Origin: Halalkalibacterium halodurans
GTDB taxonomy: Bacteria; Bacillota; Bacilli; Bacillales; Bacillaceae_D
Length of the DNA: 32,000 nucleotides
Direction of reading: 5' to 3'
Assembly (NCBI RefSeq): GCF_004376175.1
Contig: NZ_SNUY01000014.1
Coordinates: 1-32,000 of the forward strand
Positions 5,127-28,100 of the stretch are shown here, piece by piece (position 1 is the stretch's first letter; each line of letters begins with the position of its first letter). A model generated the notes under the pieces. It had not been told where the DNA came from. It worked only from the letters and a program-made list of their open reading frames with translations, and did no database searches. The position numbers and the translations under genes were made by a program.

Positions 5127-6420
5127 AATAATTACTCAAATTTCGCAGACCAAATTAGGCAGGTAAGCCCTGATGTAACGAGTTAAACCTGCAATCCATT
5201 GTGATAGTTGATTTTTAAGTAATTGTTGTGTTTGTTTGTTCGTCTTTTTCAAGACATCTTGAAGAAGATCGATTAATTGCTGTAATGCGACAGCCCAATC
5301 AAGTTCATTTACTTCGTCACACAGGTCATAAAATAAACCACCTAATGTCCGTTCATCTGTGTGGCAACGATTTTACCACGAGAGAACAATGTATGTAGTA
5401 AAGACGATCGTTGTATGGCTGATAAGTAAGTCATACGAGCGGCCTTGAAACTCTTTTTATAAGCGAAGAAGGGACTTTGTCGTTTTAAAGAGCACTTCAA
5501 TATCCTAACGAATGCCGTAAATACGGACCATTTCTTGTTTAGATAGTGTGCAATCTGTGCTTAAAATGGCAAGCCATTCACTCTTCTTATTACGGTTTTG
5601 CACGAACACGACTTTAACGGGTACGCCATTGGCCATCGTCGTCGTGATTGAACGAAGAAGCCCTTTCTTTCCTTGAAGTGGAGCGGCAGATTGATAGAGT
5701 TGTTTTAAGGAAAGCATTTGTCCATTCACGTTGTAGCGCTGCTTGGCATTCTTCACCATCCCAATCACATCAAGCCCTTGGACAACGCTCGTTCAATCAT
5801 CGCTGGAATTTGATCAGGTGCAGACTGTAGCGCTTCTGTACGGCGTTTATAACCCGAACATCGCTTATCAACTTCTTCATTGATTCCGTTAATGGAAGAC
5901 GTTTTTGAGCTTAGTAAAAAGAAGTCAATCGGCATGAAAGTATGCCCATCTGACCAGCCTAATGTAAGCATTCGAAACCCTTTATAAAATCGCATGTTCA
6001 AAGAAGCATGATCAAAACAACGGGCAAGTAATTCAACATTTTTTACTGCCGATTACGATCAAACGTAGGGTCGTCAATAAATGAAGCACTTTTGAGCGGT
6101 CTATTGATGTAAGAATGCTGACTTTTTGTATGGTAGCTGTACTAAAGTGTAAAAGAAATTTCCTCCAAGCAAACTTGGAATGATTTAAAAAGAGATAGAC
6201 GGTATCTTTGCTTGGCGAACAATCATTCTTTTTCGATGTGACAAGGGCAAACCAATTTTTTTGATGGAAAATCAGACAAAAAACAAGCCGAAACAAATAG
6301 GTGCATGAAAACCCAAAGCTTTTTCGAATACCTGCGTGACATAGGTGTTTCGACACTTGTAATTTAGAGAATGTTCATTTGGTAGTTGCTCATTTGAGTG
6401 TTTTTCTCTTATCATAGAGA
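5127..6420 (-). mobile_element. Degenerate IS4-family insertion sequence (boundaries approximate)
   Basis: Transposase reading frames lie on the minus strand. The copy A / copy B alignment breaks at ~5126. A possible imperfect terminal inverted repeat pairs ATGAATAATTACTCAAATT (5127-5145) with 6361-6378 (about 13 of 19 by eye), so the right end could instead be ~6378. Confidence 0.6.
5136..6417 (-). pseudogene. IS4-family DDE transposase, inactivated (one nonsense codon and at least two frameshifts)
   Basis: It is split into ORFs 6356-6033, 6001-5765 and 5768-5505, plus an untracked tail to the stop at 5136. The minus strand reads IYGIR-TAG-DIEVLFKTTKS, the IS4 Y-(2)-R-(3)-E-(6)-K signature. 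TAG (plus strand 5505-5507) sits where Trp is expected. FKGFRMLTLGWSDGHTFMPIDF is also typical of IS4. Confidence 0.75.
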
Positions 6421-6624: not shown

Positions 6625-6653
6625 TTGACACAAATCTTCTGTGCTATTATAAT
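6625..6653 (+). promoter_or_regulatory. Consensus sigma-A promoter (copy B), candidate promoter of the NRPS operon
   Basis: TTGACA (6625-6630), 17-nt spacer, TATAAT (6648-6653), with an A-rich upstream tract. The inverted repeat TTCTGT-N11-ACAGAA spans the -10. The cre-like box AGAAATCGTTTACA lies at 6661-6674. It faces the NRPS genes, ~400 nt upstream of ATG 7059, with no canonical terminator between. Confidence 0.55.
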
Positions 6654-6811: not shown

Positions 6812-6976
6812 GGTTGCTTGTGATGATCATGTTTTCTCTTTCATACCGAAAAGAATTGGGACATTAACGCGATTCAGGTCGTTACGTCTCTCCAGAAGTA
6901 TGATATCTAATTAGACCTGGTTGAACTGTATGAGTACCAAACGCTAGAAGAATTGGCTAAGCGTATTGCTAATCAT
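6812..6976 (+). pseudogene. Relic of an NRPS peptidyl-carrier (T) domain
   Basis: The frame from 6854 reads NWDINAIQVVTSLQKYDI-stop-LDLVELYEYQTLEELAKRIANH. Compare GGDSILALQIVAKAQEIGIRVSTKDVFEYQTIEELASSVL in the second synthetase. The Ppant Ser is missing, TAA lies in frame at 6908-6910, and the preceding DDHVFSF is in another frame. Confidence 0.6.
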
Positions 6977-6982
6977 ATAAAG

Positions 6983-7014
6983 ACTCTTCCTAAACAATAT
7001 TGTTTAGGAAGAGT
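6983..7014. repeat. 32-bp perfect palindrome / stem-loop just upstream of the first NRPS RBS
   Basis: ACTCTTCCTAAACAA (6983-6997), ta, TTGTTTAGGAAGAGT (7000-7014). No U-run follows. It ends 32 nt before the RBS GGGGGGAG (7046-7053). Confidence 0.8.
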
Positions 7015-7058
7015 GACTAGGTAAAAGGATACGTAAATTGAGATCGGGGGGAGTACCT

Positions 7059-10000: not shown

Positions 10001-11720
10001 GCTCAGAGAGTGGGAGATAGATAGAATAGAAACAGACACCGTACTCCCTAGAAATGAAGTGGAAAGAAAACTGGTGGACATTTTTAAACAAGTGCTACGG
10101 ATCGAACAAATAGGGGTTAACGATAACTTTTTTGAAATGGGTGGAGATTCTATCATAGCCATCCAGATTGCATCAAAAGCTAGTGAAGAAGGTTTAACAC
10201 TTAAACCTAAGGATATTTTTGAAAGCAGGACGATTGCTAGGATTGCACAACAAGTATTAAACAATAGTCAGACTGTGTATGAAGAATCATTAGATATAAA
10301 TGGAGACGTTCCGCTTACTCCTATTCAACAATGGTTTTTTGAACAAAAATTTAACTACCCTAACCATTGGAATCAAGCAATACATCTAAAAATAGATAAG
10401 ACACTACCGTTTGTAATGATTAAGGAAGCTATGGAGGCTGTCATCGGGCAGCATGAAGCGCTTCACATGCGCTTTATGTATAAGGAAGGCGAATGGATTC
10501 AGAAGTACATGCCAGATCATAAATCAGTCCAAATCATTAATATCAAGACAAATCATACTCATCCAAATGCGATGAACAGTACGCAGGATGTTGCTACCAG
10601 CATAGGTAGTTTACAACAGGCGCTTGATTTGCAAGAAGGGCCAACAGTGCTTGCTGCATTGCTCGAAAATGATAAAGACAGTCTAAACAACGATTTCATC
10701 ATCATTATTCATCACTTGCTCGTGGATATTGTTTCGTGGCAGATCATTATGACAGATTTTGAGAGAATACTAAATAAAATGATAGAAAAAGAAAAAATAG
10801 ATATACAGCATAAAACAGCATCATACAAACGCTGGTCAACCCATTTAATAGAATCGCTTCCACTAGTACTGAGTGAGAGTAGTTATTGGAATAGAGTGAA
10901 CGACGCTGTAGCAGTATACGGAGGATCAGAAACAATTACAGGATCAGAAGGAAGTACAGTGAAAATGGAAATGCCTCTAGGTACAGCTGAAACAGAAGAC
11001 CTATTACAGGAGGTTCCTAAGTACTTTGGGACACAGCTGAACGAAGTTGTACTAGCTGCAATAGTGCTTTCTTTAAAGGCTTATACACAACGGGATGGCA
11101 TCGTCATAGATATAGAACATCACGGTAGAGTGCCATTTAATGAAGAGGCAATAGATGTATCAAAAACAGTTGGATGGTTCACTAATATCTACCCGATTTA
11201 TCTTGACTTACAGCAGATTGTCCAACCGAATGGAGATTTGTTAAAACATGTGAAGAATAAGATGCGTGAAGTTCCACATTCAGGGCTTGGCTACGGCATG
11301 TTGAGGTATCTGCAAGCGAAGGGTGCTTGTGATGAATCACAGTCTGAAATGCCGAGGGCTCGGTTTAGTTATAACTTTTTAGGTCAGATAGACCATACAT
11401 TCTTTCATTCTCGTTACTTCACATTTTCTGGATACCTTAGTGAATCTGTTCGTGATCCAAATGAAAAACGCCCTTATTTTCTTGACTTTGAACCGTACAT
11501 TTCTGCAGGAAATTTTGTACTAAGAATCGGCTATAGTAAGGACCTTGTCCCAGATTCCCGAATCCAGCGCCTAGCGGAAGAGACGATTGAACACCTAAAG
11601 TCTTTAATTACTTTATGTAAATCATCAGAAGAAATCGGTTACGTCTCTGGGGACTTTCCTAATGCTAATATTGGCCAAAAAGAGTTAGAAAAGTTCTTAT
11701 CTCATTTGAAAAATCACTAA
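7059..11720 (+). CDS. Non-ribosomal peptide synthetase 1, module 1: C-A-T-E
   Basis: ATG 7059 lies 5 nt after GGGGGGAG; the tracked TTG 7038 is less likely.
- C: YPLSSGQETLW, HHLAIDGWS (nt 7533).
- A: LAYMIYTSGSTGKPKG (8973-9020), NEYGPTE, YRTGDLA, GRKDNQIKVNGFRIE, NGKIDRK.
- T: FFEMGGDSI (Ser codon 10150-10152).
- E: PLTPIQQWFF, HHLLVDIVSW (nt 10710). Confidence 0.95.
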   Translation: MTGQYTEEVRKKREILQQYFQSNEQSANRLYPLSSGQETLWCSHYISENQNHLNMFSAWKLPHHVRIDMLEKAFQYLVDKYETLRTNYMTVKGSPYQYIHENHKVNFRYEDLSHLSRVEFDKRLSGEAHASFDIEKDPLLKIRVYKNHADEQILLFNVHHLAIDGWSITILLQELGEMYSRLVSAASPIRTVVHDTYRQFVREDKQRLKEQGKADNPIRKYWSERIREGGGLQPVNLPSLKNTGHSYKGEPIFSRIEEDLCTRLYKLAKDNKTTVYNVLLASLHTLLYRYTGQENIWVSTPFSRRGDARCFDSVGYYVNTLHIHGRFHQEVTFHDMLAQISNRVKEVFKYQDISNSFFTGNEGYAQGNTNVIFSFQNLNELKESGLSLVFLGIEGAKGNVGPLQIEVYPLKRRVAQFEVELEVVEHGKEMYFRLLYDPEKYDAHIMQRICSHYVNLLSAITSDQHRRITDYQFLNESDVVEQLHQYNHSELIRPSESNTILQLIEEVALVKPNAIAVVRGQDSITYTEILQQAEILANNLHLLGIESEDRVGLCMNTSADLMIGIVGILKAGAVYVPLDPAYPAGRIDYMINDSDISLIITDQSVSALNDVGARKVFLQDLLIDQAAPQRKVGIQSNQLAYMIYTSGSTGKPKGVMVSHGNLYASTYARRFAYEEDRPCRFILLSSISFDSSLVGIFWTLSIGGTIIIPEIRDLLDINELIKEISNHKATHFLSVPSLAHVLLSRAHPEKIRSLETIIVAGEQFPSKLQAYQQDKYPNLKIYNEYGPTEGTVWGSVHRLNDITYPIVPIGKPAKHCKLYIFDDALNLVPKGVVGELFIAGSGVTRGYINQPRMTAERFIPNPYGDGERLYRTGDLAKYNHDGTIQFIGRKDNQIKVNGFRIELGEIEATYERHPVIQKAVVINKKDQGAQIVAFIKCSDHLSQEQLKEYGSKHLPHYLIPHYFVSVEEYPLSQNGKIDRKRLREWEIDRIETDTVLPRNEVERKLVDIFKQVLRIEQIGVNDNFFEMGGDSIIAIQIASKASEEGLTLKPKDIFESRTIARIAQQVLNNSQTVYEESLDINGDVPLTPIQQWFFEQKFNYPNHWNQAIHLKIDKTLPFVMIKEAMEAVIGQHEALHMRFMYKEGEWIQKYMPDHKSVQIINIKTNHTHPNAMNSTQDVATSIGSLQQALDLQEGPTVLAALLENDKDSLNNDFIIIIHHLLVDIVSWQIIMTDFERILNKMIEKEKIDIQHKTASYKRWSTHLIESLPLVLSESSYWNRVNDAVAVYGGSETITGSEGSTVKMEMPLGTAETEDLLQEVPKYFGTQLNEVVLAAIVLSLKAYTQRDGIVIDIEHHGRVPFNEEAIDVSKTVGWFTNIYPIYLDLQQIVQPNGDLLKHVKNKMREVPHSGLGYGMLRYLQAKGACDESQSEMPRARFSYNFLGQIDHTFFHSRYFTFSGYLSESVRDPNEKRPYFLDFEPYISAGNFVLRIGYSKDLVPDSRIQRLAEETIEHLKSLITLCKSSEEIGYVSGDFPNANIGQKELEKFLSHLKNH

Positions 11721-14700
11721 ATGAAAAGCATGGGGGGATATACATAGATATTCGGAACATAGAAAACATATACACCTGCTCACCGATACAAGAAGGGATG
11801 CTATTTCACACATTACATCAACCTGAATCAGGTTTATATGTAGAACAACTAAGCTTTCAAATGATCGGTAAAGTAGAACAAGCAATGTTTGAAAAAGCTT
11901 GGCAGGAAACGATTCAAATGCACTCTGCGTTACGCACCACTTTTCACTGGAAAGAGAGCGATCGAATATTACAGGTTGTTCATAAGCAGATAGATATACG
12001 GGTCAACTATATTGATATACGGCACCATTCGATAGATGAAGGGAAAAATATAGAGTCAATAATAGAAGAAATTGCGGGAAAGTTAAAAAGAGAAGGTTTT
12101 GATTTATCGAAAGGTCCTTTAATGAAACTACATCTGCTAAGAATAGGCGATAATGAGTATCACTTTATTTGGACTTTTCATCATTTACTGCTTGATGGGT
12201 GGTCCATGGGACGAGTGATGCAAGATATTTTGAAGCTTTATGAGGGGTATGTACAAAAAAATCCTGTATTCATTCCTGCCCCTGAACAGTATGAGAGCTA
12301 TATTTCGTGGCTCAACAACCAGGATATGGATGGGGCTAAGCAATTCTGGCTTAATAAGCTGGAAGGGTTTGAGAATATCTGTCCTTTTAGTGCAGGGGAT
12401 TCATTTAGTAAAAGAAAAACACAGCAAGACGGGTACCAGGATCTCTGGCTTTCAGAAACAGTAAAAGAACAATTGGTAAATCTCACGCATGAACATGAGA
12501 TTACAATATTTTCCTTGCTACAGACAGCTTGGATTCTGCTGATTAATGGTAAATATAATATAGAGGATATCGTTATTGGAAACGTCGTTTCTGGAAGACC
12601 CCATGATTTAAAAGGGGCTGAGAACATTGTAGGTCCTTTTATTAATACACTACCGCTAAGGGCAAAGGTGAAAGCGAATGATAGGATACTTACACTCATT
12701 AAGCAAGTGCAACAAGAACAGTTAGAAATCAGTTCCTATGCTTTTACCCCCTTAAAAGACATTCATAAAGTATGTAATTTACAGGGCAACCAATCTTTGT
12801 TTGATAGTATTGTAGTCTTTGAGAATTATCCTTTAGATCAGAGTATGTTTTCAAATGAGGCTTTAGGATTCAGGATTAACAATTTCAGTATAGAGGAAAA
12901 GTCGAACTTTCCTTTAAGCTTAGCGATTATACCGTATGACAATCAGGTCATTCTGCGCTTACATTATGATTCGGAAGTGATGACCTCAGAGCAAACAAAC
13001 AAGATTCTGGAACAAGTTGAGAATATTGTTCAGGAGATCATTCTGGATATAACACGTACAGTAGATTCAATCAGTCTGCTGTCGCCTGAAGATAGAGACA
13101 AGAGCATAATGCAGTCTGAAACAACAGAATGTATCGGAGTAACAGAAAGTGCTCCTCAGGTATCGAATGTGCTACACCAACGGTTTGAGCATCAAGCAGC
13201 ACGTAGGCCTGACAAAATAGCGCTTAGAACAGAGTCTGATCTCTTATCCTATGAACAGTTAAATTGTAAAGCAGAACATATTGCCTCCCTTTTACTCTCT
13301 AAGGGGCTGAAGTTTGAAGAGCGAGTAGCCGTACTATTGAATAGGTCACTGGAATCAATCGTTTCCATGCTAGGCATTCTTAAAGCAGGCGGTGTCTACG
13401 TCCCTCTTGATGTAAACTTACCTCCAGAACGTTTGGAGTATGTGATTCAGGATGCAAATATTCGCACAATGATCACCGAGGAACCGTTCACAGAAAAATA
13501 CAAAGATCAAGTGCTAGATCTGATCAATATCCACCATTCATCAAAGACTCAACACTTAGAGGCAATAGACAGGCCACCAGTTGTAGCCGATCAATTGGCG
13601 TACATTATGTACACCTCAGGTTCTACTGGGCTACCTAAGGGAGTAGCTGTTACACACGAGGCAGCAGCTTTGCATTATACTGCTTTTCAACAGCAGTTTC
13701 AATTGAGTGAAGATGACGTTGTTTTGCAATTTAGTGCAATGACCTTCGATCCATCCATTGAGCAGGTTTTTCCAACACTTTTCAGTGGTGGAGAGGTCTT
13801 CGTTCGGGGGGAGGATGTTTGGGATGCACAACACTTTGTTCACACGCTAGAAGAATACGCAATTACGGTCGCGAATTTACCGACGGCGTACTTTTATGAG
13901 GTAGTGAATAGCCTTATGATCACAACTCAGTGCTTGAGCCTTCCAGCGTTACGTTTTTTAGCGATCGGGGGGGATAAGCTTTCATATAAACATGTTCAGC
14001 TATGGAATCGACTCAATCAAGGAAAGACACAATTGTTTAACTTTTACGGCCCAACAGAAACTGTAACAACGAGCACATTCTATTTAGTCCAACCGAGTAA
14101 TCTGTTAGATGAGATCAGTACGATTCCAATTGGTATACCTATGAGCGGTAGAAAGTTATATATTCTTGACACGTATGGTAGACCAGTACCGTCAGGGGAA
14201 AAGGGCGAGCTATGCATAGGAGGCAATATCATCGCACGTGGTTATGTTAATAAACCGAGACTGACTGCCCAACGATTTATTCCCGACCCTTTCAGTACAG
14301 AAGAAGGAGCCTTAATGTACAGGACAGGCGACATTGTTCGCCTTAATGAACACGGAGACCTAGAATATATAGGGCGAAATGACGATCAGGTAAAAATACG
14401 TGGTTATCGAATAGAAATAGGAGAAATAGAAAAAGCGCTGCTTACAATTCGTGAAGTTGAAGACGTAGCGGTCATTGTACATGATCAAGATACTCGTTCA
14501 AAAACATTAGTAGCATACGTGGTTGTTGCTGGCGATATGGACAGGCAAAGGATAAAAAGGAAGTTAAAAGATAAGCTCCCAGAATATATGCTACCAAAAC
14601 AAATCATGTTTTTGGACCGCTTGCCATTAAATACGAATGGAAAAGTGGATAGAAAATCGCTACCACTTGTTCATCTTCAAGATGAAGAGTATAAAGAGAA

Positions 14701-17700
14701 CGATGAAAACGCTGCACCAAAAACGGAAACGGAAAAAGCGTTGGTGAACATTTGGAAGAGTGTTCTACAGGTACAGCAAGTTAGCATTAAAGATAATTTT
14801 TTTGATCTAGGTGGCGACTCAATTCTAGCTTTACAAATTGTAGCGAAAGCACAGGAAATTGGAATCCGAGTGAGTACAAAGGATGTATTTGAGTATCAGA
14901 CGATAGAAGAGTTAGCATCATCAGTCTTAACGGGGGCTTATCCAGAAGTAGCTGCCACAACGATACAAAAACACGTGGTTGGGAGCGATCGGGGTAAATC
15001 TGGGGAGAATATTCCACTTACACCAATACAATCATGGTTTTTTGAACAGCAGTTTGATCAGCATCATCACTGGAATCAATCAGTCCTATTGCAGGTAAAA
15101 GAGCGTATAAACACTCATGCGTTAACTGAAGCATTAGAAGCAGTAGTAGATCATCATGAAGCTTTAAAATATCGTTATCACCAAAAGGATGGACAATGGA
15201 TTCAACAAGTGACAGACCGTGGAAAGACGTATGCAATAGATGTCATAAAACTAAACGATAACAGCACAACCAGACAGATTCAGGTTAAAGAAGAAATATT
15301 GCGAGTACAAACGAGCTTAAATATTGAAAATGGTCCAATAATGAAAGTGCTTTACTTAGAACACACAAACACTTCGCTATGTAGGCTGTTTATAACAATC
15401 CACCACTTGGTCGTTGATAGCGTTTCATGGCGTATCCTACTTGAGGATTTACTACGACTATATAGACAAGCTTTGCAGTCCAAACAACTAGATATTCCTG
15501 AGAGGACATCGAGCTTTAAGGATTGGTCTTACACACTCAGTACATACGCTCAGCAACATATTTCACATGATGAGCAAGAATACTGGGAGAAGAAAGCGAG
15601 CATTGAATACAAGCTCCCAGTCGATTTTAGAAACGATTCAAACAACACAGAAGGTTCTCTAGACAAAATAACGTTGACCTTTACTAGAGAAGAGACTGAA
15701 TCGCTGACGAGAACGCTGCATACCACCTTAGGAGCAAAAGCGCATGAAATATTAATAGCAGCACTCATGATCTCTCTGCAGCAATGGTCAGACACACGTC
15801 AAATCAAAATAGACATCGAAGGACATGGAAGAGAAAATATTGACCCTACCATAAATTTGAGCAAAACGGTGGGCTGGTTTACAACGCTCTTTCCAGTTAC
15901 GGTCAATTTTGATCAACAGTACTCCGTGCTTCAGAAAGTACAAAGGGCCGTCCAAGAACTGCGCTCAATTCCTATGAATGGAATCGGTTACGGTCTACTC
16001 AAGTATATGAGTGGATCAATATTGAATGAGAGGCCAGCCGATGTCAGCTTTAACTACTTAGGGCATATTCATACGGAACTACACACAGATGCTCCATTTA
16101 TGATGTCATCTGAAAGTATTGAGCCTCTCAGACATGCTGAAGCTAAAAGAACATATTTGCTAGATATAGAAGGGGGGATCTTCGACGGCCAGTTAAAACT
16201 TGATTGGATGTTCAGTAAGAACGTTCATCAGAAGTCTACAATGATAAATCTGACAAATGAATTTAACCAAGTGATAAAAGAATGTGTGAGTATTGGCCAA
16301 CAGTTAAAGGGATACAAGCATCTTCCAAAGGATTTTCCTACAGCAGTACTATCACTGGAGGACTGGAAAATCGTCAATGAATTAGAGGGAAATATAGAAG
16401 ACTTATATTCGTTGTCCCCGATCCAAGAAGGCATGCTTTTCCATTCATTATTACAGCCTGGCACGGGTGTATACGTTCAGCAAATGGCATTTAAGATAAA
16501 AGGAGAGGCATTCATAGAGCGGTTTATGCAATCTTGGGAATATGTGATGAACCAACATCCGATATTAAGAACGATTTTTAGATGGGAAGGCTTTGAAAAG
16601 CCAGTACAGATCGTCAAGGCTAAAGCTAGTGTTCACGTTGATATTCTCGATTGGACAGATCGTCGATTCAGTTCAGATTTTAAAGTACAGGATGAATTGG
16701 GGAAATTGTGTAAAAAACTTAGGGAAAGCACTGTCGATATTTCCAAGGATAAACTTGTTTGCTTTACATTCGTAAAGCTAGAGTCAAATGAGTTCTTCTT
16801 TATATGGAACTATCATCACATGCTCTTAGACGGCTGGTCAATGCCAACCGTTTTGAGTCAGGTGTGTGAGGTTTATACGAAATTGTTACACCAAGAACCA
16901 TTACCAAAATTAGAGTCACCACCTTTTAGAGTATTTATAGACTGGTATTTAAAGCAGGACCACTCAACAGCAGAAACCTTTTGGAAAACGATGCTAGACG
17001 GATATCAACATACCACATACTTACCGATCAAGCAGGTTGATCCTGTTGGTGGGAGGAGGATAGAGGAGATATCAGGGCAAACACATGAAGAAATGACATT
17101 ACAATTGTCTAGTGCAAGTTTTCGTCGTCTCAAACAATTAGCGACTAAAAAGAGAGTTACTTTGTATAGTTTAATTCAAACAGCTTGGAGCATCCTACTT
17201 CATTATGCTAGCAAAAAGGAAGATCTTATATTCGGCTCTGTATACTCAGGAAGACCTGCATCCATTAAAGGTATAGAGGATATGGTTGGTATGTTTATTA
17301 ACACGTTACCAATACGTGTAAAAATTGAAGCGGACCAAACACTTAACAACCTACTACAAAATGCTCATGCACTACAAATGAAGGTAAAGGAGTATGAACA
17401 CACCCCACTTGTAGACATCAAGAAATGGAGCGGAATCCAAACAAGAGGGGAGTTGTTTGACACGTGTGTGATCTATGCAAATTTCCCTAACGTCATGTCT
17501 ACTGAGGGTACACAACAGATCATCGAAGGGGTAGAAGTCTCAGATATCACCGCTCTTGAACAAACGAATTATCCACTGACCTTGTCAGTGGTAACAAATG
17601 AAACCATGTCATTAGATGTGAACTTTGATACGTACAAAATTGATAAAGGCGATGTAGAGCACTACCTATTTATACTCGAACATATCCTGAACAACTTTGA

Positions 17701-17842
17701 GAACAGGATAGAGTCAACTTTGACTGACATAAGTAAGGAGCTAGATAAGCTTTTCCAGTCCAGAAGTGGAGTGATCAGGTCGAAGCAGAGAGAGAAAAAT
17801 CGAAGCAGGCTGTTAAACGTCACAAGAAGGAAAAAAAGGTAA
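11721..17842 (+). CDS. Non-ribosomal peptide synthetase 2: C-A-T-E-C (frameshifted at its 5' end as sequenced)
   Basis: The uninterrupted ATG-initiated ORF starts at 11798, inside the C1 motif (SPIQEG-MLFH). Homology continues upstream in the same frame to ~11738 without a start codon. ATG 11721 abuts the NRPS1 stop but is one frame off across the G6 run at 11732-11737.
- C: HHLLLDGWS (nt 12179).
- A: LAYIMYTSGSTGLPKG, NFYGPTE, NGKVDRK.
- T: FFDLGGDSI.
- E: PLTPIQSWFF, HHLVVDSVSW (nt 15401).
- Second C: SLSPIQEGMLFH, HHMLLDGWS (nt 16814).
The protein then ends with a basic tail. Confidence 0.9.
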
Positions 17843-17882
17843 AGGGATTGATATTTCATTATAACAAATCGAGAGGTGAAGT

Positions 17883-18914
17883 GTGTTGAATAAATCACTA
17901 AATATTAAAAATAGAAAAAGAAGGCAAGTAAAAATTGGACAAGAATTAGTACAAAAGCAATTACTTAATGAAGAGCAGCAGCTTCCACTTGTTATTAAAC
18001 CAATGTCAGCAGATGTAAATATCCTTGAGTGGGTGGGAAAAAATAGAACAGCTCTCGAAAAAGATTTAGCTAAGCACGGTGGGATATTGTTTAGAGGTTT
18101 TAATATAGATGAGGTCGATCGTTTCTACGATTTTATTCATCAGTACTCTGGGAATCTACTAGAATACAAAGATAGTGCGACGCCAAGAAGTAATGTGAAT
18201 AAACAGATTTATACATCAACTGACTATTCAGCAGAGCATTGGATCGAGCTGCATAATGAAAGTGCCTACAGTGATCAATGGCCAATGAAGATCTTCTTTA
18301 ACTGTCAGATACCTGCACAAGAAGGTGGTGAAACACCTATCTTAGATAGCAGGAAAGTCTACGAAAAAATGGATAAGCGTGTACGTAAAAAGTTTGAAGA
18401 AAAGCAAGTGATGTATGTGAGGAACTTCGGTCTAGGAGTAGGTCAGAAATGGCAAGATGTATTCCAAACCGAAGACAAAGATCAAGTAGAGGAGATTTGT
18501 GAGAAAAGTGAGATGCAATGTGAATGGGAATCAGATGAACACTTAAGAATCAAGCAAATTAGACCTGCTGTATCCCAACATCCACTAACAAAAGAATATG
18601 TCTGGTTTAATCAGATTACCGCATTTAATATCACAACTTTAAACGAAGACGTAAGACAGGAGCTTTTGAGAGAGTATGGAGAGATGAATGTGCCTAAAAA
18701 CACATTTTATGGAGATGGAACTGCAATCGAAGCAGAAGTTTTAGAAGAGATTAGAAGAGTATATAACGAGGAAATGATCGTATTCCCTTGGGAAAAGGGT
18801 GATCTTATCGTATTAGACAATATGCTAGTTGCCCATGGGAGGACATCTTATAAGGGTAAGCGAAAAGTGCTCGTTGGAATGACTGAACCGATGAAATGGT
18901 CACAGATTAAATAA
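17883..18914 (+). CDS. Stand-alone Fe(II)/2-oxoglutarate dioxygenase, TauD/TfdA superfamily, SyrP-like amino-acyl beta-hydroxylase
   Basis: Motifs typical of SyrP-like NRPS hydroxylases: GGILFRGF, YTSTDYS, LHNESAY (H-x-E), GGETPILD, VWFNQI, VLDNMLVAHGR (distal His). RBS GAGAGGTGA lies at 17871-17879. The start is GTG 17883 or TTG 17886. Confidence 0.85.
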   Translation: MLNKSLNIKNRKRRQVKIGQELVQKQLLNEEQQLPLVIKPMSADVNILEWVGKNRTALEKDLAKHGGILFRGFNIDEVDRFYDFIHQYSGNLLEYKDSATPRSNVNKQIYTSTDYSAEHWIELHNESAYSDQWPMKIFFNCQIPAQEGGETPILDSRKVYEKMDKRVRKKFEEKQVMYVRNFGLGVGQKWQDVFQTEDKDQVEEICEKSEMQCEWESDEHLRIKQIRPAVSQHPLTKEYVWFNQITAFNITTLNEDVRQELLREYGEMNVPKNTFYGDGTAIEAEVLEEIRRVYNEEMIVFPWEKGDLIVLDNMLVAHGRTSYKGKRKVLVGMTEPMKWSQIK

Positions 18915-18925
18915 GGGGGATGAAC

Positions 18926-21900
18926 ATGAGTACGATGGAAGGATACCCATTATCACCTCAACAAAAAAAAGTATGGGAATTACAGAATAAGATAGATAAG
19001 CCATTGTATCATCTCGCATCTTTTCAACTGTCTGGGGAGTTAGACTTGTTTAAATTACGAGAAAGCATGAAGCAAGTACTAAATCGCCACGAAATACTTC
19101 GTACAAGCTTTAATAAAATTGAAGGGATGCACTATCCCGTACAAAGGATTCATGATGAAACGGACGTACGTCTTTCAAGTCGGAGTATTGAGGAAGTACA
19201 GCAGGAAAGGAATGCGAAGGAGATATTAAGTACGTATACAGATGAAACAATCAATCAAATTCTTGATATAGAGAATGGCAGTCCTGTTTACGTAGAGGTG
19301 ATCAAACAAAGTGAAGAAACGCATAAAATTGTATTGTGCTGCTCTGCTTTGAACGCTGATGCTACAACCTTACAAAGCGTCTTGCAGGAAACAATACATT
19401 TATATAGTAAGCAAGAATCACGTTCAGAAGATGATATTGTTCAGTATGTAGACTATTCAGATTGGCAAGAAGAGCTATTTGAAACGGAGAAAACAATTGA
19501 GGATAATAAGCAAAACGTTCAACAGAAGGCGTTACCTTATGAAGCGCAAGACTTGGAATGGCCTAGCGGTAAAAATCGTGCTTCTATCCAGGTTTCCGTC
19601 GACATTTACTCAAAAATGCAAGCGTTAGCGCATGAATGGAATGTTCCTTTGCTTACACTTTTACTCACCAGTTGGAGCATGTACTTATCAAAACTGGTAA
19701 ATGGTGATGTCAATCTAGGAATAACAATAGATGGAAGAAGAAATTATGAAGAATTAAAGAATGGAATGGGTCCGTACGCAAAATTAATGAAGCTTATTAC
19801 ACCAGAAATAGAGGAGAAAGCAACGTTTAAGGAGTATGTTGCGATCATCCAAGACCGTTTCGTACAGTTGGCAGATGCTGTTGAGTACTTGGATCCAACT
19901 TCAACTCTAAAAGAGAAGAGGATTCTACCATATCAGATCCAGTACGTGAAAGGTGTAAACTATGAGCATGGGAACTTGAGCTGCTTTTCTGAAGAAATAT
20001 ACTCGGGGGAGGATACGTATAAGTTAAAGCTCAGCATTTTAGATAGCGAGTCAGTTATGAACATCGGTATTCAATATGATGATGCCATATATAAAGCAGA
20101 AGATATTCAAACGGTCATTAGGCATTTTCTACACTTCTTAGAGGAGTGTCTAGACGATTGGAACAGACCATTTTCTGAGCTAAAGTATCAATCGAAAGAA
20201 GAAGAGAAGGAGATTCTATCAAGTACGAGCACTTCAAGTGCTACATACCCTTCGGAGGACATCCTAAGTCATACAAAAAACATTTTGCAACACCTTAAAG
20301 AGAGTATAACTCTTCATGCTCATAAAGTGGCAATTGAGGAAGGCTCACTTACATTATCGTACAAGGATATTGATGAAAAATCGAATCAAATGGCCCAGTT
20401 TATTAAATCTTTTAATATTATGCCTGAAGAGCGTATTGCGATGTGCCTACCGAGAAGTGTGAATGCAATCATAAGTATGCTAGCAATACTCAAGTCAGGA
20501 GCTAGCTTTGTACCTATTGATCCTAAGTGGCCAGTGGAAAGAATTCAATATGTCCTTCAAGATAGTGGGGCTAAGTTGATAGTTGTACAAAATCGAGAAT
20601 CAATGGATCCAGCATTTTCTCCAGGGGTACCACTGATAGATATAGAGCATGATGAAGAGAAGATCAATCAGTATGAAACGGGACAAGAGCTGCCATTAAA
20701 CAATATTGAATCTAATCAACTTGCTTATATGATGTACACGTCAGGATCTACTGGCTTACCTAAAGGGGTGGGAATCGAACACGGTGGGCTTTTGAATTAC
20801 ATATTATGGTTTAAACGCCAATTTTCGGAGGATTTGAACATGCCGTTTATCTCTGAGTTCGGCTTTGATGCTTTTCTAAAGCAAGTGTTTTGCCCCCTAA
20901 CGTTAGGGAATAAAATCACGATTTTCACAGAAGAGGAAGTACTAGATACAAATAAGCTAGTAGCAAAGTTAATCAATACGAATATGAACGCACTTAACTG
21001 TGTACCGTCCTTATGGGAAGTGGTTCTACAAGAAATCCAGCAAAAAGAAGACTTGTTAAGGAATCTGCGTCGTCAACTAAGAACGTTACTTGTAGGAGGG
21101 GAACAAGTTTCAGTTTCATTTATTCAGAGAACGAAGGACATGCTACCTGAAGTAGACATCGTAAATCTTTATGGACCGACTGAAGCAACATCAAATGCAA
21201 CATTTGCAAGGTTAACGCATCCTTACCTCATTACCATCGGCCAACCAATCGCCAACATAGAAGTGGCTGTCTTAAATGAAAAGCTAGAACAAGTTGCAGT
21301 CGATGAAATTGGTGAACTGTATATTGGTGGAACAGGTATTGCTAGAGGTTATATCAACAAGGCGAAGCTTACGGCAACTCAGTTCATCCCGCATCCATAC
21401 TCAGATGTGCCAGGTATGCGACTGTATAAGACAGGTGATCTTGTTCGTATTCGCCCGAATAGACAAATAGAGTTTATAGGGCGGCGGGATTCACAAATGA
21501 AGATCAATGGTAAGCGTGTAGATGCGAGAGAGATCGAATACACGTATGCACAACATCCACTTTTAGAAAGCGTAGTTGTGTTACCTATTGAAGAAGAAAA
21601 GACCCTCGTAGCGTTTTATGTGCAACAGGGTACAGCACTGACACAGGAAGAATTGAGAACATACGGGCAAAAACGATTACCTCAATATATGATTCCTCAT
21701 TCATTTGTCAGAGTGGATATGATGCCACTAAATAATAGTGGAAAAACGGATCACCGAACGTTACAAAGCATCTATCGTGAAGCATCAAGAAAGGAGTATA
21801 TAGCGCCGCGTAACAAGACAGAACAAGCAGTATCAGAAATATGGAGAGAGGTGCTGAAAGTTGAGAGAGTAGGGATGAGAGATAATTTCTTTGAACTGGG

Positions 21901-22099
21901 AGGTCATTCTCTAAATGCTACCCAATTGATTTCAAGATTGAGAAGGATTTATAGGGTAGATATCCCGATCAGTCTAATATTCGAGACGGAGACGGTTGAA
22001 CGATTATGTGAAGAGATAGAGATGACTCTTTCCCAAAAACACCATATTGAAGAGATATCAGCTGCATATCTTAAAGCTAAGGCTTTGGCAATAAAATAA
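18926..22099 (+). CDS. Non-ribosomal peptide synthetase 3: catalytically His-less C-like (interface-type) domain-A-T
   Basis: ATG 18926 lies 6 nt after AAGGGGGA; ATG 18920 is also possible. The C fold is recognisable (YPLSPQQKKVW, RHEILRTSF, YVDYSDWQ). At the HHxxxDG position it reads SALNADA (nt 19343-19363).
- A: LAYMMYTSGSTGLPKG, NLYGPTE, YKTGDLV, SGKTDHR.
- T: FFELGGHSL. Confidence 0.9.
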   Translation: MSTMEGYPLSPQQKKVWELQNKIDKPLYHLASFQLSGELDLFKLRESMKQVLNRHEILRTSFNKIEGMHYPVQRIHDETDVRLSSRSIEEVQQERNAKEILSTYTDETINQILDIENGSPVYVEVIKQSEETHKIVLCCSALNADATTLQSVLQETIHLYSKQESRSEDDIVQYVDYSDWQEELFETEKTIEDNKQNVQQKALPYEAQDLEWPSGKNRASIQVSVDIYSKMQALAHEWNVPLLTLLLTSWSMYLSKLVNGDVNLGITIDGRRNYEELKNGMGPYAKLMKLITPEIEEKATFKEYVAIIQDRFVQLADAVEYLDPTSTLKEKRILPYQIQYVKGVNYEHGNLSCFSEEIYSGEDTYKLKLSILDSESVMNIGIQYDDAIYKAEDIQTVIRHFLHFLEECLDDWNRPFSELKYQSKEEEKEILSSTSTSSATYPSEDILSHTKNILQHLKESITLHAHKVAIEEGSLTLSYKDIDEKSNQMAQFIKSFNIMPEERIAMCLPRSVNAIISMLAILKSGASFVPIDPKWPVERIQYVLQDSGAKLIVVQNRESMDPAFSPGVPLIDIEHDEEKINQYETGQELPLNNIESNQLAYMMYTSGSTGLPKGVGIEHGGLLNYILWFKRQFSEDLNMPFISEFGFDAFLKQVFCPLTLGNKITIFTEEEVLDTNKLVAKLINTNMNALNCVPSLWEVVLQEIQQKEDLLRNLRRQLRTLLVGGEQVSVSFIQRTKDMLPEVDIVNLYGPTEATSNATFARLTHPYLITIGQPIANIEVAVLNEKLEQVAVDEIGELYIGGTGIARGYINKAKLTATQFIPHPYSDVPGMRLYKTGDLVRIRPNRQIEFIGRRDSQMKINGKRVDAREIEYTYAQHPLLESVVVLPIEEEKTLVAFYVQQGTALTQEELRTYGQKRLPQYMIPHSFVRVDMMPLNNSGKTDHRTLQSIYREASRKEYIAPRNKTEQAVSEIWREVLKVERVGMRDNFFELGGHSLNATQLISRLRRIYRVDIPISLIFETETVERLCEEIEMTLSQKHHIEEISAAYLKAKALAIK

Positions 22100-22123
22100 G
22101 GTGATATAAGTAGGTGAATGTAT

Positions 22124-25100
22124 ATGAGCTTTTCAAAAGAAATGGAAATTCTTGATCAGCTATTAAAAGATGAAGGTGAAAGTGATCGTATCCCAAGAAG
22201 AACTAATCGAGCAGAATACCCTTTATCATTTGCCCAAGAGCGGCTTTGGTTTATCCAGCAGTTAGATCATCACAGTGCAGCGTACAATATCCCCTTAGCG
22301 ATTAGATTGGCTGGTGCTCTTGATACAGAAAAATTGGAACGCTGTTTTAATAAGGTCATTGAAAGGCACGAGGTGCTACGTGCAACATTTAAGAAAGAAA
22401 ATGGGAAAGCGAATCAGCATATTATTTCAGCCCAGTATTATCCTATTTCTTTACACGATTTAAGTACACTCTCTTATGCTGAAAGAGAGAATGAGGCCAG
22501 AAGTGTTGCTCAGAAATTAGCCTGTAAACCGTTTGACTTGAGTGAAGGGCCTTTATTCCGTATTCAATTAATAAAATTACAAGCGAATGAACATATCCTC
22601 GTTCTGATCATGCATCATATCGTATCAGATGGTTGGTCTACAGGAGTGTTGATTAATGAACTGACTAAGCTGTATCATGCGAATGAAGAAGAATGGAATG
22701 AGATACTCCCAGACCTATCTATCACATATTCTGACTATGCAGCTTGGCAGAGAAAAAAATATGAAAACGGTGATTATCAGAAGCAACTGGAATACTGGAA
22801 AAAGATAATAGGAACAGAATCGACGAAGCTTGCACTTCCTTATGATTTCCCTAAAGCGAATGCGGCTAGTCAATATGGTGATGTTGAGTGCTTCACAGTT
22901 CCGTTGTCGGTGACAAAAGCGGTTAAGCACACGAGCCAAAAGCTAGGAGTATCAGCTTTTACAATCTTACTTTCCGCATACTATCTATTCTTATTTCGGT
23001 ACTGCAACCAAAAAGAAATAATAGTGGGAACACCTGTGGCGAATCGTAACCAGTTTGAAACTGAGTCACTTATTGGCTGTATTGCGAACACGATTCCATT
23101 AAAAATGAATGTTGAAAGCGATTCTACTGTGAAGGATTTCATTGCAGAAGTAAGTCGTACAACATTAGAAGCTTATCAGAATCAGGATGTTCCTTTCGAG
23201 AAAATAGTAGATGAGCTTAAAGCTGAACGTACACTATATCAATCACCAATATTTGAAACGATGTTTACATTTCAAAATCAACATCGAAACTTAATCACTT
23301 TAGATCGGAGCATAGAGACACAACCGTACCACTTACAGTTAGATGCAAGCAAGTTTGATTTATCCTTATCAATCATGGAAGTGGATGGAGAATATGACTG
23401 TGTATTTGAATATCGAACAGAGCTTTTCAGGCAAGATTCAATTAAACGGATGGCCAGTAACTTTATTTGTATATTAGAAGGAATGGTAGATGAGCCATTA
23501 AATACGATTCATACGCTTCAGTATATGGATCAAGAAGAGCAGAAACTAATGAGTGTAGCATCGTCCTTAGTCTATAAAAAGGGAGATATGATTTTTCAGC
23601 GCTTTGAGCATCAGGTGCTACAGAACCCTGATGTGATCGCAGTTGATGACGGTAAGCAAAGGCTATCGTATGCGGAATTAAACAATAAATCCAACAAGTT
23701 AGCTAGATATTTGCGGAGAAATGGTGTAAATACAGAAGCGAAAGTACTCATTCAATTGGACCGTTCAATAGATTTAATCATTGCAATTTTAGGTGTATTA
23801 AAAGCAGGTGGGACCTACATACCCGTTGACCCAGAGCAACCTGCTGAAAGAACAAAGTATATCATCAACGACGCTAAATGCGAGTATATGCTTACAAAAT
23901 CAAAATATATGAAAGATAACCAGCTGGAATTGGATCAACGAATCCTGTATATAGACCTGCATGATCAGAGGTGGTTAAAAGAGGAAGAAAAGAATTTAGC
24001 ATCTGTAGGAATGTCACCTGATCAAGTCGCTTATATGATCTACACATCAGGTTCAACCGGGAAGCCAAAAGGAGTGTGTAATACACATTACAATGTCATC
24101 CGCTTGTTTGATAGCGCTGAACAACATTTTGATTTTGGCCGTGATGATGTCTGGACCCTCTTTCACTCTATAGCGTTTGATTTCTCGGTGTGGGAGATGT
24201 GGGGGGCCCTACTTAATGGTGGAAAACTCATGATTGTACCGCATGAGCTACGTAGAAATCCTGAAGCATTTTACAAATTCATGAGTGAAAATCGTGTTAC
24301 TGTTTTAAATCAGACACCTTCTGCATTTAAAGTAATTGTTCGGTTGGCGAAGCACACTCAGCATCCTCTGTTTCTTAAGTACGTTATTTTCGGAGGAGAA
24401 GCATTAGATTATCAAGACTTGACAGCATGGTTTGAATATCATGGCGAAAAAACAAAAATGATTAACATGTATGGCATCACAGAGACAACGGTTCATGTCA
24501 CCTATAGGGAGGTGAAGAAGTCAGATGTAACTGGAAATCAAGGTAGCTTCATAGGACAACCTTTAAATGATCTTACCATTTATATATTGAATGAGGACTT
24601 ACTTCCAACACCAATTGGCGTTCCTGGAGAAATTTATGTGAGTGGAGCAGGCTTAGCGAGGGGATATTTTAATCGTCCCTCCCTTACTGCGGAGCGCTAT
24701 ATCCCCAACCCATTCAAATCCGGTGGACAAAGGCTATACCGTACAGGGGATATTGCCAAGCGAACGGTGAACGGAGACATAGAATATCTAGGTAGATCGG
24801 ACGACCAAGTAAAGGTTAAAGGGCACAGGATTGAATTAGGGGAAATAAAAGCCACTATTGCAGAGGATCACAGGGTAGAAGATTGTGTGGTTTTAGTGGG
24901 ATCGAACAGTAGGAATGAAAAGGAGCTTGCAGCTTTTATTACGTTTAAGCAAAAGGAAGAAACTGAAGAACAGGTACGAGAATTACGCAATCATTTAATT
25001 GATAAGTTGCCGAGATACATGTATCCAGCTCATATTATAGCTGTTGACACTATACCGATGAATGCAAATGGAAAGGTTAACAAAGAGCAATTATTGACTC

Positions 25101-28100
25101 TACGTACTGAAAGCGCTGCTTCTCAAGGAGGTAGGCCACAAACAAAGACTGAAAAAGAGTTGGTTGCCGTCTGGGAAAAAGTATTAGGAAGAAATGGTAT
25201 AGGGATACATGATAATTATTTCTCACTCGGTGGAGACTCGATAAGGAGTGTTCAAGTCATATCTGAGCTACAAGAAATGGGATATGAACTTGAAGTAAAA
25301 GACATGTTCCTTAACCAAACGGTTAAAGAATTGGCAGAATACTTGGAACAGAGCGAAAGTCGTACAACAACGTATAGGCGTACAAAGCCATTTGAACTCA
25401 TTTCAGATAAAGATCGGTCAGCGTTAAGCGAGGCAATAGAAGATGCGTATCCACTTACAAAGCTACAAGAAGGGATGCTTTTCCACATGGAACAGTTTCC
25501 TAATCAACCGATTTATCACAACATCGATAGTGTGCGACTGGAGGGTGCATTAAATATTGACCTATTTAATGAAGCGGTAGCAAGCGTTGTGGAAAACAAT
25601 GTAATGTTACGTACCTCCTTTGACATGTATTCATATTCCGTACCATTACAACTTGTACACAAAAAAGCAAAGCTACCTGTTGGTTATCAAGACATTAGAC
25701 ATTTATCCGAACAAGAGCAGGAGCGAGTCATTGATGAGTATGTTGAACAAGAAAAAATGAATAAGTTCGATTTAAATAAACCGAGTCTGTTAAGGTTCTA
25801 TATTCACCAGCGAACGGCCGAGACATTTCAATTCACGCTTACAGAGTGTCATCTAATATTTGATGGGTGGAGCTTAACATCAACGCTTAGTGAAATCTTT
25901 GACCTATACTTTGATCTGCTTGAAAATAAACGTCAAATGACGGAAAGCAAGGAACTGAATGTACGGTTTAGTGATTTCATACGCTTAGAACAGGAATCGA
26001 TAAATAGTGAGGAACAGCAAGAGTTTTGGAAGAGCTACCTTGACGATTGCCAACTACTAAAATTTAATCATTTGACCCCTGAAACAAAGCATGAATCAGT
26101 GGAAATCCATAGAAGAATCGTTTCATTACCACAGACTGTTAAGAAAAAGTTAAAGCAAATAGCTGCAGATCATAGCGTGACGTTAAAAAGTATGGTATTA
26201 GCCGCTCATATTAAAGCTTTGCAGGTTATTTCAGGGCAATCCGATGTCTTGACTGGGTTGGTTTCAAACGGAAGGATGGAAGTGAAGGATGGGGAGAAAG
26301 TAAAGGGACTATTTCTAAACACACTTCCATTAAGACAGAGAGTGCAACAGGGTACGTGGATCGACTTTATTCATCAAACATTCAAGATGGAACAACAGAT
26401 CCTGCCGTACAGGAGATACCCGTTGCCCGAGATACAGAAAACTGTAGGACAATCTCCATTATTTGAAACAGCGTTTAACTACGTTTACTTTCATTCAATG
26501 GAGCACTTGTTTCAATCGAAAAAGCTTAAGTTTATTGACTTTAATAAAAACTCAGCAAATGATACCCATTTTTCGTTAATGGCTAACTTTGCTGTACATC
26601 CACCACATTACGATATTCAGTTAACTTTAGCTTTTGATCGGAATCGTTTTTCAGAAGAAAAGATGGACTCTGTTGCTGATATCTATCGTAATATCCTAAT
26701 ACAAATCGCTTCTGATCCTTTGATAAATCATAACAACCGTTCCTATCTAGCTGACCAGGAATATAAAAAGGCAGTGTACAAATGGAATGAAACTGATAGA
26801 GGATATGCTGAAAGTGGTTTGACGATTCAACAATTGATCGCCAAGCAAGTTAAACGGACACCAGAACATCCTGCGGTAGTGTTTCAATCGGAGAAGATGA
26901 CTTATGCAGAGCTAAATCAAAAAGCTGATCAGGTTGCTCAGTTTTTAAAGGCACAAGGAATCTCAAATAACGCTTTTGTTGGTGTATATCTTGAACGATC
27001 CTTAGAGATGATGGTTGCATTATTAGGGATTCTTAAAGCAGGATGTGCTTATGTACCATTGGACACATCCTATCCAGAAGAACGAATCAAGTATATGATA
27101 GCTGATGCTGGTGTTGAGTGTATCCTTACAGTGAAACATCAACTAAACAATATTTTGAGCATGAGTAATGATACACCGCAGGACTGTTATGACATACTCG
27201 AAATTCTTAGTGCCCAAGAAAAGCAACCAAGTTCTGATTTTGAGTATCATAGGGGATCAACAGAGGATATTGCTTATATGATTTATACGTCTGGATCAAC
27301 AGGAAATCCAAAAGGGGTAATGATTCCACACAAAGGGATTGTAAACCGTCTTCTGTGGATGCAAGAGGAGTATCAGTTAAACAAGGAGGATCGAGTGCTT
27401 CAAAAAACACCTTTAAGCTTCGATGTTTCTGTATGGGAGTTATTTTGGCCACTGATTACAGGTGCAAGCTTAGTCATCGCTAAGCCTGAAGGTCATAAAG
27501 ATAGCTACTATTTAGCAAAGCTAATTAAAGAAGAACAGATCACCACTTTACATTTTGTACCTACAATGCTGCAAGAATTTCTGAATGAAAAAGAATCAGA
27601 GAACTGTACAAGCTTAAAAAGGGTGATTTGTAGTGGTGAGGCTCTTGCCCCAGAACTGAAAGATCGCTTCTATAAAGCATTAAATTCACACCTGCATAAT
27701 TTATACGGCCCTACAGAGGCATCGGTAGATGTGAGTTATTACGCCTGTAAACAAGAGGATTCTTCAGTTTGGATCGGAAAACCGATTGCGAATATACAGC
27801 TCTATGTTCTAAACAAGGATTTGCAACCTGTAGGGGTAGATAGAATAGGAGAGCTGTTTATCAGCGGCATAGGATTAGCGACAGGATATGCGAACAAGCC
27901 TAGTTTAACTGCAGAGAAATTTATACCGAATCCTTTTTCAAAAAAACAAGGCATGAGAATGTATAGCACAGGGGACCTAGTACGCTTATTACCAGACGGA
28001 AATATCGAATACATTGGTAGAAAAGACAGCCAAGTAAAAATCCGTGGAGTAAGGATTGAGTTAAAGGAAATCGAGTCTGCAATGAGAAGCCATCATCATA

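Follow-up and report, generated by a model that had tools for sequence, protein, structure and literature searches.

A putative β-hydroxylase/interface-domain cassette of divergent type in a nonribosomal peptide synthetase cluster of Halalkalibacterium halodurans

Introduction

A 32,000-nucleotide stretch of DNA from Halalkalibacterium halodurans (assembly GCF_004376175.1, contig NZ_SNUY01000014.1, positions 1 to 32,000), referred to in the following as the window, carries a five-module nonribosomal peptide synthetase (NRPS) cluster on its + strand, encoding proteins TES55742–TES55749. The third module of this cluster is spread over three polypeptides. The second synthetase, NRPS2, ends in a condensation (C) domain; the next gene encodes a stand-alone Fe(II)/2-oxoglutarate (Fe/2OG) dioxygenase of the TauD family; and NRPS3 begins with a C-like domain, here called C*, in which the catalytic HHxxxDG motif is replaced by SALNADA, followed by an adenylation (A) and a thiolation (T) domain (Table 1). 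A first-pass annotation made from the letters alone had described this division, and we recovered all of its parts at the same coordinates. The locus raises the question of what a C fold without its catalytic histidines does next to a hydroxylase gene, and whether the combination is as unusual as it appears.

Non-catalytic interface (I) domains, associated with the TbH_Asp and IbH_Asp as well as the IbH_His hydroxylases, were reportedly described in proteobacterial siderophore NRPSs by Reitz, Hardy, Suk, Bouvet and Butler (PNAS 2019). The first-pass annotation had suggested that C* is a domain of this kind paired with a SyrP/TauD hydroxylase, that the C domain of NRPS2 must act in trans, and that such an arrangement would be unusual, both in a Firmicute and in having the catalytic C domain on a different protein. 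Our results bear out the first two suggestions and not the third. The arrangement itself is known, and the window holds a divergent Bacillaceae example of it that probably hydroxylates a residue other than aspartate. We consider it probable that module 3 works as a β-hydroxylase/interface-domain cassette, in which the I domain would act as a platform, hydroxylation would take place on the carrier, and condensation would occur in trans.

Identity of the N-terminal domain of NRPS3

SALNADA was column-matched to the HHxxxDG motifs of the seven other C and epimerization (E) domains of the window in a sequence alignment. Counting back from the retained Asp, positions −4 and −5 hold Ala and Ser, and C* therefore lacks the catalytic His; that it had merely shifted, which would have made C* an ordinary C domain, could be ruled out. 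C* matched PF00668 at 5.5e-41 over residues 9–433, with only 141 bits, while each of the neighboring synthetases totaled 400–800 bits across its two or three C-type domains. An AlphaFold2 model of C* had an intact two-lobed C fold (pLDDT 79, pTM 0.82), and its top Foldseek matches were solved C domains (DhbF, Txo2, TycC, SrfA-C) and the teicoplanin X domain, with TM scores of ≈0.66–0.77. A sequence search of the Protein Data Bank (PDB) detected no solved I domain. NRPS3 has two candidate start codons, and the second ATG, at 18926, is probably the true one.

Scanning a single genome for each species with C*, we obtained more than 576 relatives; among these, the 80 best came mostly from Cyanobacteria, Pyrinomonadaceae, and delta-proteobacterial or Binatia metagenome-assembled genomes (MAGs), at 24–30% identity. 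When the domains of these loci were mapped with phmmer, 106 non-Bacillaceae I-like domains were obtained; Bacillaceae relatives were drawn from separate plasmid and TauD searches. Relatives in the protein collection all opened their protein with MxxxxEGFRLSPQQ, had SLCAD(A/S) where HHxxxDG would stand, and continued into an A domain. The His pair was missing from all 106 I-like domains, which shared the motif [SP][AS]L[CI]AD..[TS]L, and from all five Bacillaceae I domains. The window sequence SALNADATTL conforms to the family pattern [SP][AS]L..D..[ST]L, and the same replacement was seen in an alignment of the I-like domains from the window, four other Bacillaceae, one cyanobacterium and five Proteobacteria. 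Across I-like domains, conservation extends to the structural Asp, to an invariant Arg and to ≈30 more positions. Because the His pair is absent from 106/106 relatives and 5/5 Bacillaceae domains, with a conserved motif in its place, the loss in C* is not chance decay. An exhaustive search of representatives with C* found nothing above ≈27% identity beyond its own cluster among the matches listed, in a ranking summed over multiple domains that hides single-domain relatives at ≈30%. A search with the I domain of Azospirillum, which is 17% identical to C* over the trimmed alignment, returned two matches only.

A hidden Markov model (HMM) trained on non-Bacillaceae I-like domains only scored C* at 267 bits, versus 143 bits on an HMM built from 192 canonical C domains out of the same loci, a difference of +124 bits. 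All of the window's other C and E domains, seven in number, favored the canonical model, by 44–212 bits. In a neighbor-joining (NJ) tree of 70 domains (Poisson distances, 200 bootstraps), which included LCL, DCL, starter-like, modAA-like and E domains, all of the I-like domains formed a single clade with 93% support, as judged with proxy references. This clade, separate from the canonical C and E domains, included C*, CcsL of cyanochelin biosynthesis and the proteobacterial I-like domains. Within it, the Bacillaceae (99.5%), cyanobacterial plus acidobacterial (100%) and proteobacterial (99.5%) domains grouped separately, the Bacillaceae group being sister to the cyanobacterial/acidobacterial one (77.5%). 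Sequence, fold, phylogeny and synteny thus support the assignment of C* to the I clade as a non-catalytic, C-like domain.

The upstream side of module 3

The terminal C domain of NRPS2 is intact. It clustered with DCL-type domains and scored 320 bits on the canonical-C model versus 110 on the I model. The E domain of module 2 is predicted to leave the donor D-configured, which fits the DCL type of the C domain next to it. No A or T domain follows this C domain, only a tail of ≈36 residues. The pattern QK(E/D)xNRxxL…R(R/K) in this basic tail is kept in the orthologues from Bacillus cereus, Cytobacillus firmus and Salibacterium, and the tail could be a docking element or the remainder of a former C–TauD linker. 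Both E domains of the cluster have variant motifs, HHLLVDIVSW (10710–10739) in the first and HHLVVDSVSW (15401–15430) in the second, in which the Gly that usually follows the Asp is replaced by Ile or Ser.

The dioxygenase matched PF02668 (TauD) at 1.8e-43. In an alignment of 54 relatives, H, E, H and R were among the invariant columns, and the iron triad is present in the window protein. The gene is preceded by a ribosome-binding site (RBS), GAGGTGA, and ends 5 nt from NRPS3. NCBIfam contained no specific model for either the dioxygenase or NRPS3. From the gene order and from relatives that have been tested, we infer that the enzyme works on a carrier-bound rather than a free amino acid.

Gene order across the family

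All 106 I-like domains start within the first ≈80 residues of their frame, 100 of them within the first 40, and an A domain follows in the same frame in 100/106. A TauD gene lies directly upstream (≤700 nt, median gap 51 nt) in 81/106 and within ≈1.1 kb upstream in four more, and is never in the frame of the I-like domain. In 76 of the 81 cases TauD is preceded by a C domain, which is encoded by a separate open reading frame (ORF) 55 times and forms a fusion with TauD 21 times. Proteobacterial plasmids have this layout as well. In Variovorax, Janthinobacterium, Eleftheria and Azospirillum, a …T-C-TauD fusion is followed by an I-A-T protein; in Methylocystis, a protein ending in T-C is followed by a stand-alone TauD and then by I-A-T. 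The clades formed by the TauD proteins follow the code of the partner A domain.

The catalytic C domain is found on the preceding polypeptide in essentially every member, in Cyanobacteria, Acidobacteria, Proteobacteria and Bacillaceae, so the view that its placement on a separate protein is unusual does not hold: C, or C fused to TauD, followed by I-A-T, is the rule of this family and no oddity. That the C domain of NRPS2 must act in trans agrees with the same order of genes in CcsK/CcsL (PMC12628792) and with the trans condensation described for the Mxg system (PMC13638107).

Several delta-proteobacterial or Binatia MAG loci (L025, L026, L040, L061 and L072, in each case at approximately position 10001) have an I-like domain with a C domain upstream and no adjoining TauD. 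The order in L040 is a polyketide synthase (PKS), a stand-alone C protein of 524 residues, and then I-A-T-C-A-T.

Bacillaceae relatives

The single best match to C*, at 30% identity, was found by tblastn of plasmid records on the B. cereus plasmid pVKMB-370_1. This cluster is syntenic with that of the window, in the order NRPS, NRPS, TauD, NRPS, NRPS, exporter, MbtH, followed by fatty-acid synthesis genes. Orthologues of the dioxygenase with 57–75% identity were found in B. albus, C. firmus, Metabacillus arenae, B. infantis and Salibacterium, and all three of the neighborhoods examined had the same five-gene architecture. With syntenic clusters in B. cereus, C. firmus, Salibacterium and others, the Firmicute setting is not unique.

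When the H. halodurans cluster was compared with that of B. cereus, the lowest identity, 29.5%, was that of the I domain, against 42–64% for the other domains. Over ten pairs of Bacillaceae clusters, identities were 28–48% for the I domain, 44–60% for the A domain and 50–79% for the T domain, and in every pair tested the I domain was 8–12 points below the true C domain of the module. Low identity together with conserved positions fits a scaffold, constrained less strongly than a catalyst, and does not agree with a decaying relic. In the tree, the Bacillaceae I domains appear as a third deep lineage, which is divergent, with at most 30% identity in the I domain.

The B. cereus cluster also has features of its own. 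The genes after MbtH encode FabG, an acyl carrier protein (ACP), two ketosynthases, FabZ and a transaminase, and hint at a starter that is a lipid or a β-amino-acyl unit. Upstream of its NRPS1 (locus L084, 1424–4325) are an arginine-deiminase-family gene and a NAD(P)/FAD oxidoreductase, both absent from the window. Its last A domain has the code DYFYMSQVEK where the window has the Ser code, and its last synthetase has no thioesterase (TE) region.

Substrates of the A domains

Stachelhaus codes were extracted by alignment to GrsA-PheA, for which the anchor sequence was checked against known positions (Table 1). The A1 code is His-like; DSALIAEVWK is a published His signature (PMC12283262), the only code for which the literature searched gave confirmation. 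The code of A3, kept as DAK[CN][LF]GLSNK in the Bacillaceae clusters, differs from the Asp code DLTK(V/I)GH(I/V)GK, so the Asp substrate implied by the first-pass annotation is unlikely, as is a β-OH-Asp cassette. The partner A domains in Cyanobacteria mostly have the Asp code DLTKIGHVGK, and some are His-like or Gln-like.

The A3 code resembles DAKDLGVVDK, which we take to be the Glu code (Stachelhaus 1999), and also DMENLGLINK, presumably an Orn code, with Glu239 changed to Lys and the charge at this position reversed. The Thr and Ser assignments of A4 and A5 follow the canonical codes. A3 probably activates an acidic, Glu-like residue. Consistent with this, the closest non-Bacillaceae A domain (364 bits), from a delta-proteobacterial MAG, sits behind an I-like domain and has the code DMKNLGIANK. 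The Bacillaceae TauD proteins form a clade of their own, whose sister is a mixed clade with partner codes of His, Gln and Asp type, and which is distinct from the main stand-alone Asp clade; this is also consistent with a Glu-like substrate, as is the activation of L-Glu by MxgB, a myxobacterial I-A-PCP protein (PCP, peptidyl carrier protein; PMC13638107).

No siderophore uptake genes were found in the window, only an exporter, and no site in the window scored above chance as a Fur box. The features of the window related to chelation are the single β-hydroxylase and the His-like code of A1.

Comparison with characterized systems

As in the proteobacterial interface systems, a His-less C fold opens the protein that bears the A-T of the residue to be hydroxylated, and the TauD-type hydroxylase is either stand-alone or fused behind the C domain of the preceding protein. 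In contrast to those systems, the cassette of the window occurs in a member of the Bacillaceae, in a deep lineage of its own, with a partner A code of neither the Asp nor the His type, and the uptake genes and Fur box looked for in the window were not found. Profiles for interface domains and their hydroxylases are included in antiSMASH 8 (PMC12230676).

On a plasmid of Leptolyngbya sp. NIES-3755, the TauD gene BAU16062 lies directly before BAU16061, which has an I-like N-terminus. In cyanochelin B biosynthesis, CcsK (BAU16062) is a self-standing aspartate β-hydroxylase, and CcsL (BAU16061) is the Asp module that leads to β-OH-Asp6 (PMC12628792). The gene order is the same as in the window, an NRPS ending in C, TauD, and a His-less domain followed by A-T; the N-terminal domain of CcsL shares 26% identity with C*, CcsK and the window dioxygenase share 42%, and the product carries the predicted β-OH residue. 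Unlike in the window, the substrate is Asp and the product is a hybrid PKS/NRPS siderophore (PMC12628792). The C domain before TauD is of LCL type in cyanobacterial loci generally, whereas it is of DCL type in the window.

Myxoglucamide is made by MxgA (…ACP-C-Ox; Ox, oxygenase) and MxgB (I-A-PCP), which we liken to NRPS3 by description only. As proposed here for the window, an acidic residue other than Asp, L-Glu, is hydroxylated on the PCP, and the upstream C domain carries out a trans condensation that is coupled to the hydroxylation (PMC13638107). Unlike in the window, the upstream protein carries the oxygenase as a fusion; in vitro, the I domain proved dispensable, and the hydroxyl is cryptic in the final product (PMC13638107). 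In the glidomide system (Chen et al., Angew Chem 2022), also likened by description only, GlmF is summarized as a stand-alone Fe/2OG hydroxylase, like that of the window, acting on a PCP-bound residue in an I-domain-dependent manner, but with His as the substrate and in a Burkholderiales host (PMC13638107, PMC11611013).

The X domain of glycopeptide synthetases (PDB 4tx2/4tx3) is another dead C fold, which recruits trans-acting oxygenases to a carrier-bound substrate, and its fold is about as similar to the C* model as are those of true C domains. Unlike C*, it is located in the last module, before the TE, and recruits P450s. With no P450 in the window and the wrong place in the assembly line, we ruled out that C* is an X domain. 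The X domain presumably belongs to a different clade from C*.

Discussion

We propose that A3 would charge the T domain of module 3 (T3), the presumed carrier, at Ser997 with an amino acid that is probably acidic and Glu-like, and not Asp. The I domain, a dead C fold, would serve as a protein–protein platform that brings both the stand-alone dioxygenase and the trans-acting C domain of NRPS2 to the aminoacyl-S-T3. The dioxygenase would then β-hydroxylate the tethered residue, the DCL-type C domain would join the D-configured upstream chain to it, and NRPS4 would append Thr and Ser before release of the product by the TE. There are precedents for the central steps: the Ox domain of MxgA hydroxylates Glu-S-PCP on MxgB, with condensation in trans by the upstream C domain (PMC13638107), and GlmF reportedly requires its I domain for the formation of β-OH-His in glidomide biosynthesis (PMC13638107).

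A number of points weigh against this proposal. The tree that places C* among the I domains is a simple distance NJ tree containing no Cy, dual E/C or X-domain references, and CcsL and the proteobacterial loci of canonical layout had to serve as proxies for the original interface-domain set and for the antiSMASH profile HMM. The Glu-like assignment of A3 is based on likeness to reference codes. Of the I-like domains, 11/106 have no adjoining TauD and a C domain, trans or stand-alone, directly upstream; what stays constant as a partner of the I domain is thus the trans C domain, not the hydroxylase. Finally, coupled hydroxylation and condensation did not require the I domain of MxgB in vitro (PMC13638107), which means that strict positioning is not a general role of the I domain.

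These last two points leave a serious rival, which we consider less probable than the platform model and yet clearly ahead of the other alternatives: the His-less domain might mainly dock the upstream C domain, as a large COM-like element, with the dioxygenase recognizing the aminoacyl-S-T by itself. The TauD-less cases with an upstream C domain and the MxgB result are what would be expected of such an element, as are the conserved basic tail on NRPS2 and the observation that every I-like domain begins a protein, almost always behind a separately encoded C domain where upstream sequence exists. Against mere docking stand the presence of a TauD gene next to or near the I-like domain in most of the family (81/106, and four more within ≈1.1 kb), the correspondence between TauD clades and partner A-domain codes, and the reported dependence of GlmF on its I domain (PMC13638107). 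On this evidence, we favor a platform for both partners over docking of the C domain alone.

It is improbable that the dioxygenase hydroxylates a free amino acid, with A3 selecting the hydroxylated product and the I domain standing outside the chemistry. The TauD/CAS-like family does include enzymes acting on free amino acids, such as VioC and IboH (PMC11611013), and the unusual code of A3 could suit a modified substrate. However, the nearest relatives of the dioxygenase sit in C, TauD, I-A-T cassettes and the hydroxylase is fused to an NRPS in 21–25 relatives, while the related enzymes tested in such a setting, namely the Ox domain of MxgA, GlmF and, with Glu, KtzO/P, use carrier-bound substrates (PMC13638107, PMC11611013, PMC8949500). 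Least probable of all is that C* is a functionless, decaying relic or a non-canonical C domain still catalyzing with other residues: it evolves faster than any other domain of the assembly line and keeps the structural Asp of HHxxxDG, but it is full length and free of stops, has a confidently predicted two-lobed fold and a conserved motif of its own over at least three phyla, with ≈30 invariant positions, and an intact canonical C domain is always present upstream for condensation.

With this cassette, a system first described in Proteobacteria and routinely found in Cyanobacteria now extends to the Bacillaceae, in a lineage that is divergent in both its I domain (≤30% identity) and its A-domain code. 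The role of the I domain is debated, having been found dispensable in myxoglucamide biosynthesis and reportedly essential in that of glidomide (PMC13638107). The simple system described here, made up of five genes and with a hydroxylase that stands alone, would lend itself to a third test of this role, and there are culturable hosts, among them H. halodurans itself, C. firmus and B. cereus VKM B-370.

A wider proposal is offered tentatively, as a conjecture that may well prove wrong in one part or another. The Bacillaceae cassettes would represent a third deep lineage that places a β-hydroxyl on a Glu-like residue, rather than on Asp or His, within an uncharacterized (lipo)pentapeptide of the type His-like, X, β-OH-X, Thr, Ser/other. 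This peptide would be common to H. halodurans, the B. cereus group, Cytobacillus, Metabacillus and Salibacterium; it might bind metal, which could be useful to an alkaliphile, and the NRPS2 tail would dock onto the I domain.

Cluster layout and surroundings

The remaining genes of the cluster and the coordinates of all features are collected in Table 1.

Table 1. Features of the NRPS cluster in the window
Feature	Coordinates	Strand	Remarks
NRPS1	7038–11720	+	C-A-T-E
A1			DSVSIAEVWK; His-like
NRPS2	11798–17842	+	C-A-T-E-C
A2			DPENAGFTTK; no substrate assigned
NRPS2 E domain (module 2)	14975–16357	+	HHLVVDSVSW at 15401–15430
NRPS2 terminal C domain (module 3 C)	16403–17731	+	Intact; HHMLLDGWS, residue 1673, 16814–16840
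NRPS2 basic C-terminal tail	17732–17842	+	≈36 residues (…SKQREKNRSRLLNVTRRKKR, then stop)
TauD-family Fe/2OG dioxygenase	17883–18914	+	343 residues, stand-alone
Dioxygenase metal residues	18252–18260; 18834–18842	+	H124-x-E126; H318-G-R
NRPS3	18920–22099	+	C*-A-T (= I-A-T); start 18920 or 18926
Putative interface (I) domain C*, NRPS3 N-terminus	18920–20254	+	His-less C fold
SALNADA in place of HHxxxDG	19343–19363	+	Asp kept, both His lost, TL at +3/+4, as throughout the I family
Module 3 A domain (A3)	20294–21799	+	DAKCLGLSNK; not Asp, probably Glu-like; SGSTGLPK at 20741–20764
Module 3 T domain (T3)	21812–22054	+	GGHS; phosphopantetheine (Ppant) Ser997 at 21908–21910
NRPS4	22118–29614	+	C-A-T-C-A-T-TE
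First C domain of NRPS4	22190–23572	+	HHIVSDGWS from 22613; predicted to pass chain from T3 to Thr
A4			DFWNIGMVHK; Thr, presumably
A5			DVWHISLVDK; Ser, presumably
Cyclic-peptide export ABC transporter	29631–31274	+	TIGR01194
MbtH-like accessory protein	31354–31563	+	
ACP-like ORF	≈31620–32000	+	DSL motif; continues past window end

The cluster is flanked by YwnF and TetR genes, orthologues of BH1886 and BH1887 of strain C-125. Between TetR and NRPS1 (4455–6400) there are no intact genes, only broken minus-strand ORFs, among them the remnant of a DDE transposase (PF13751, 3e-07; e.g., 4566–4739, minus strand). Because of this remnant, the C-125 flank orthologues, and the small size of the protein clusters that hold the NRPS proteins of the window (only 3 or 4 sequences each), we suggest that the NRPS cluster is an acquired accessory island. 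An Rfam search of the window found no elements.

Directly upstream of NRPS1, at 6863–7010, there is a carrier-protein-like remnant (…INAIQVVTSLQKYDI, an in-frame stop, then LDLVELYEYQTLEELAKRIANH), which may be the relic of a lost upstream module. A perfect 12/12 match to the sigma-70 consensus promoter (TTGACA-17-TATAAT) is located at 6625–6653, ≈385 nt upstream of NRPS1, and a perfect 14-bp palindrome (ACTCTTCCTAAACA ATAT TGTTTAGGAAGAGT, 6983–7014), which could be an operator or attenuator, directly precedes the NRPS1 RBS.

The reading frame of NRPS2 is open 5′ of the first ATG at 11798, and 11708–11800 encodes IDIRNIENIYTCSPIQEG, a normal C-domain N-terminal motif. This open stretch contains no ATG, GTG or TTG, and translation probably begins at a non-canonical codon, ATA or ATT, near 11744, behind a GGGGGG RBS. 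The second C domain of NRPS4, behind the Thr module, has the motif CHLIFDGWS (25847–25873), in which the first His is replaced by Cys and the second His is retained; it is 59.6% identical to its B. cereus orthologue, the highest value among the C-type domains.

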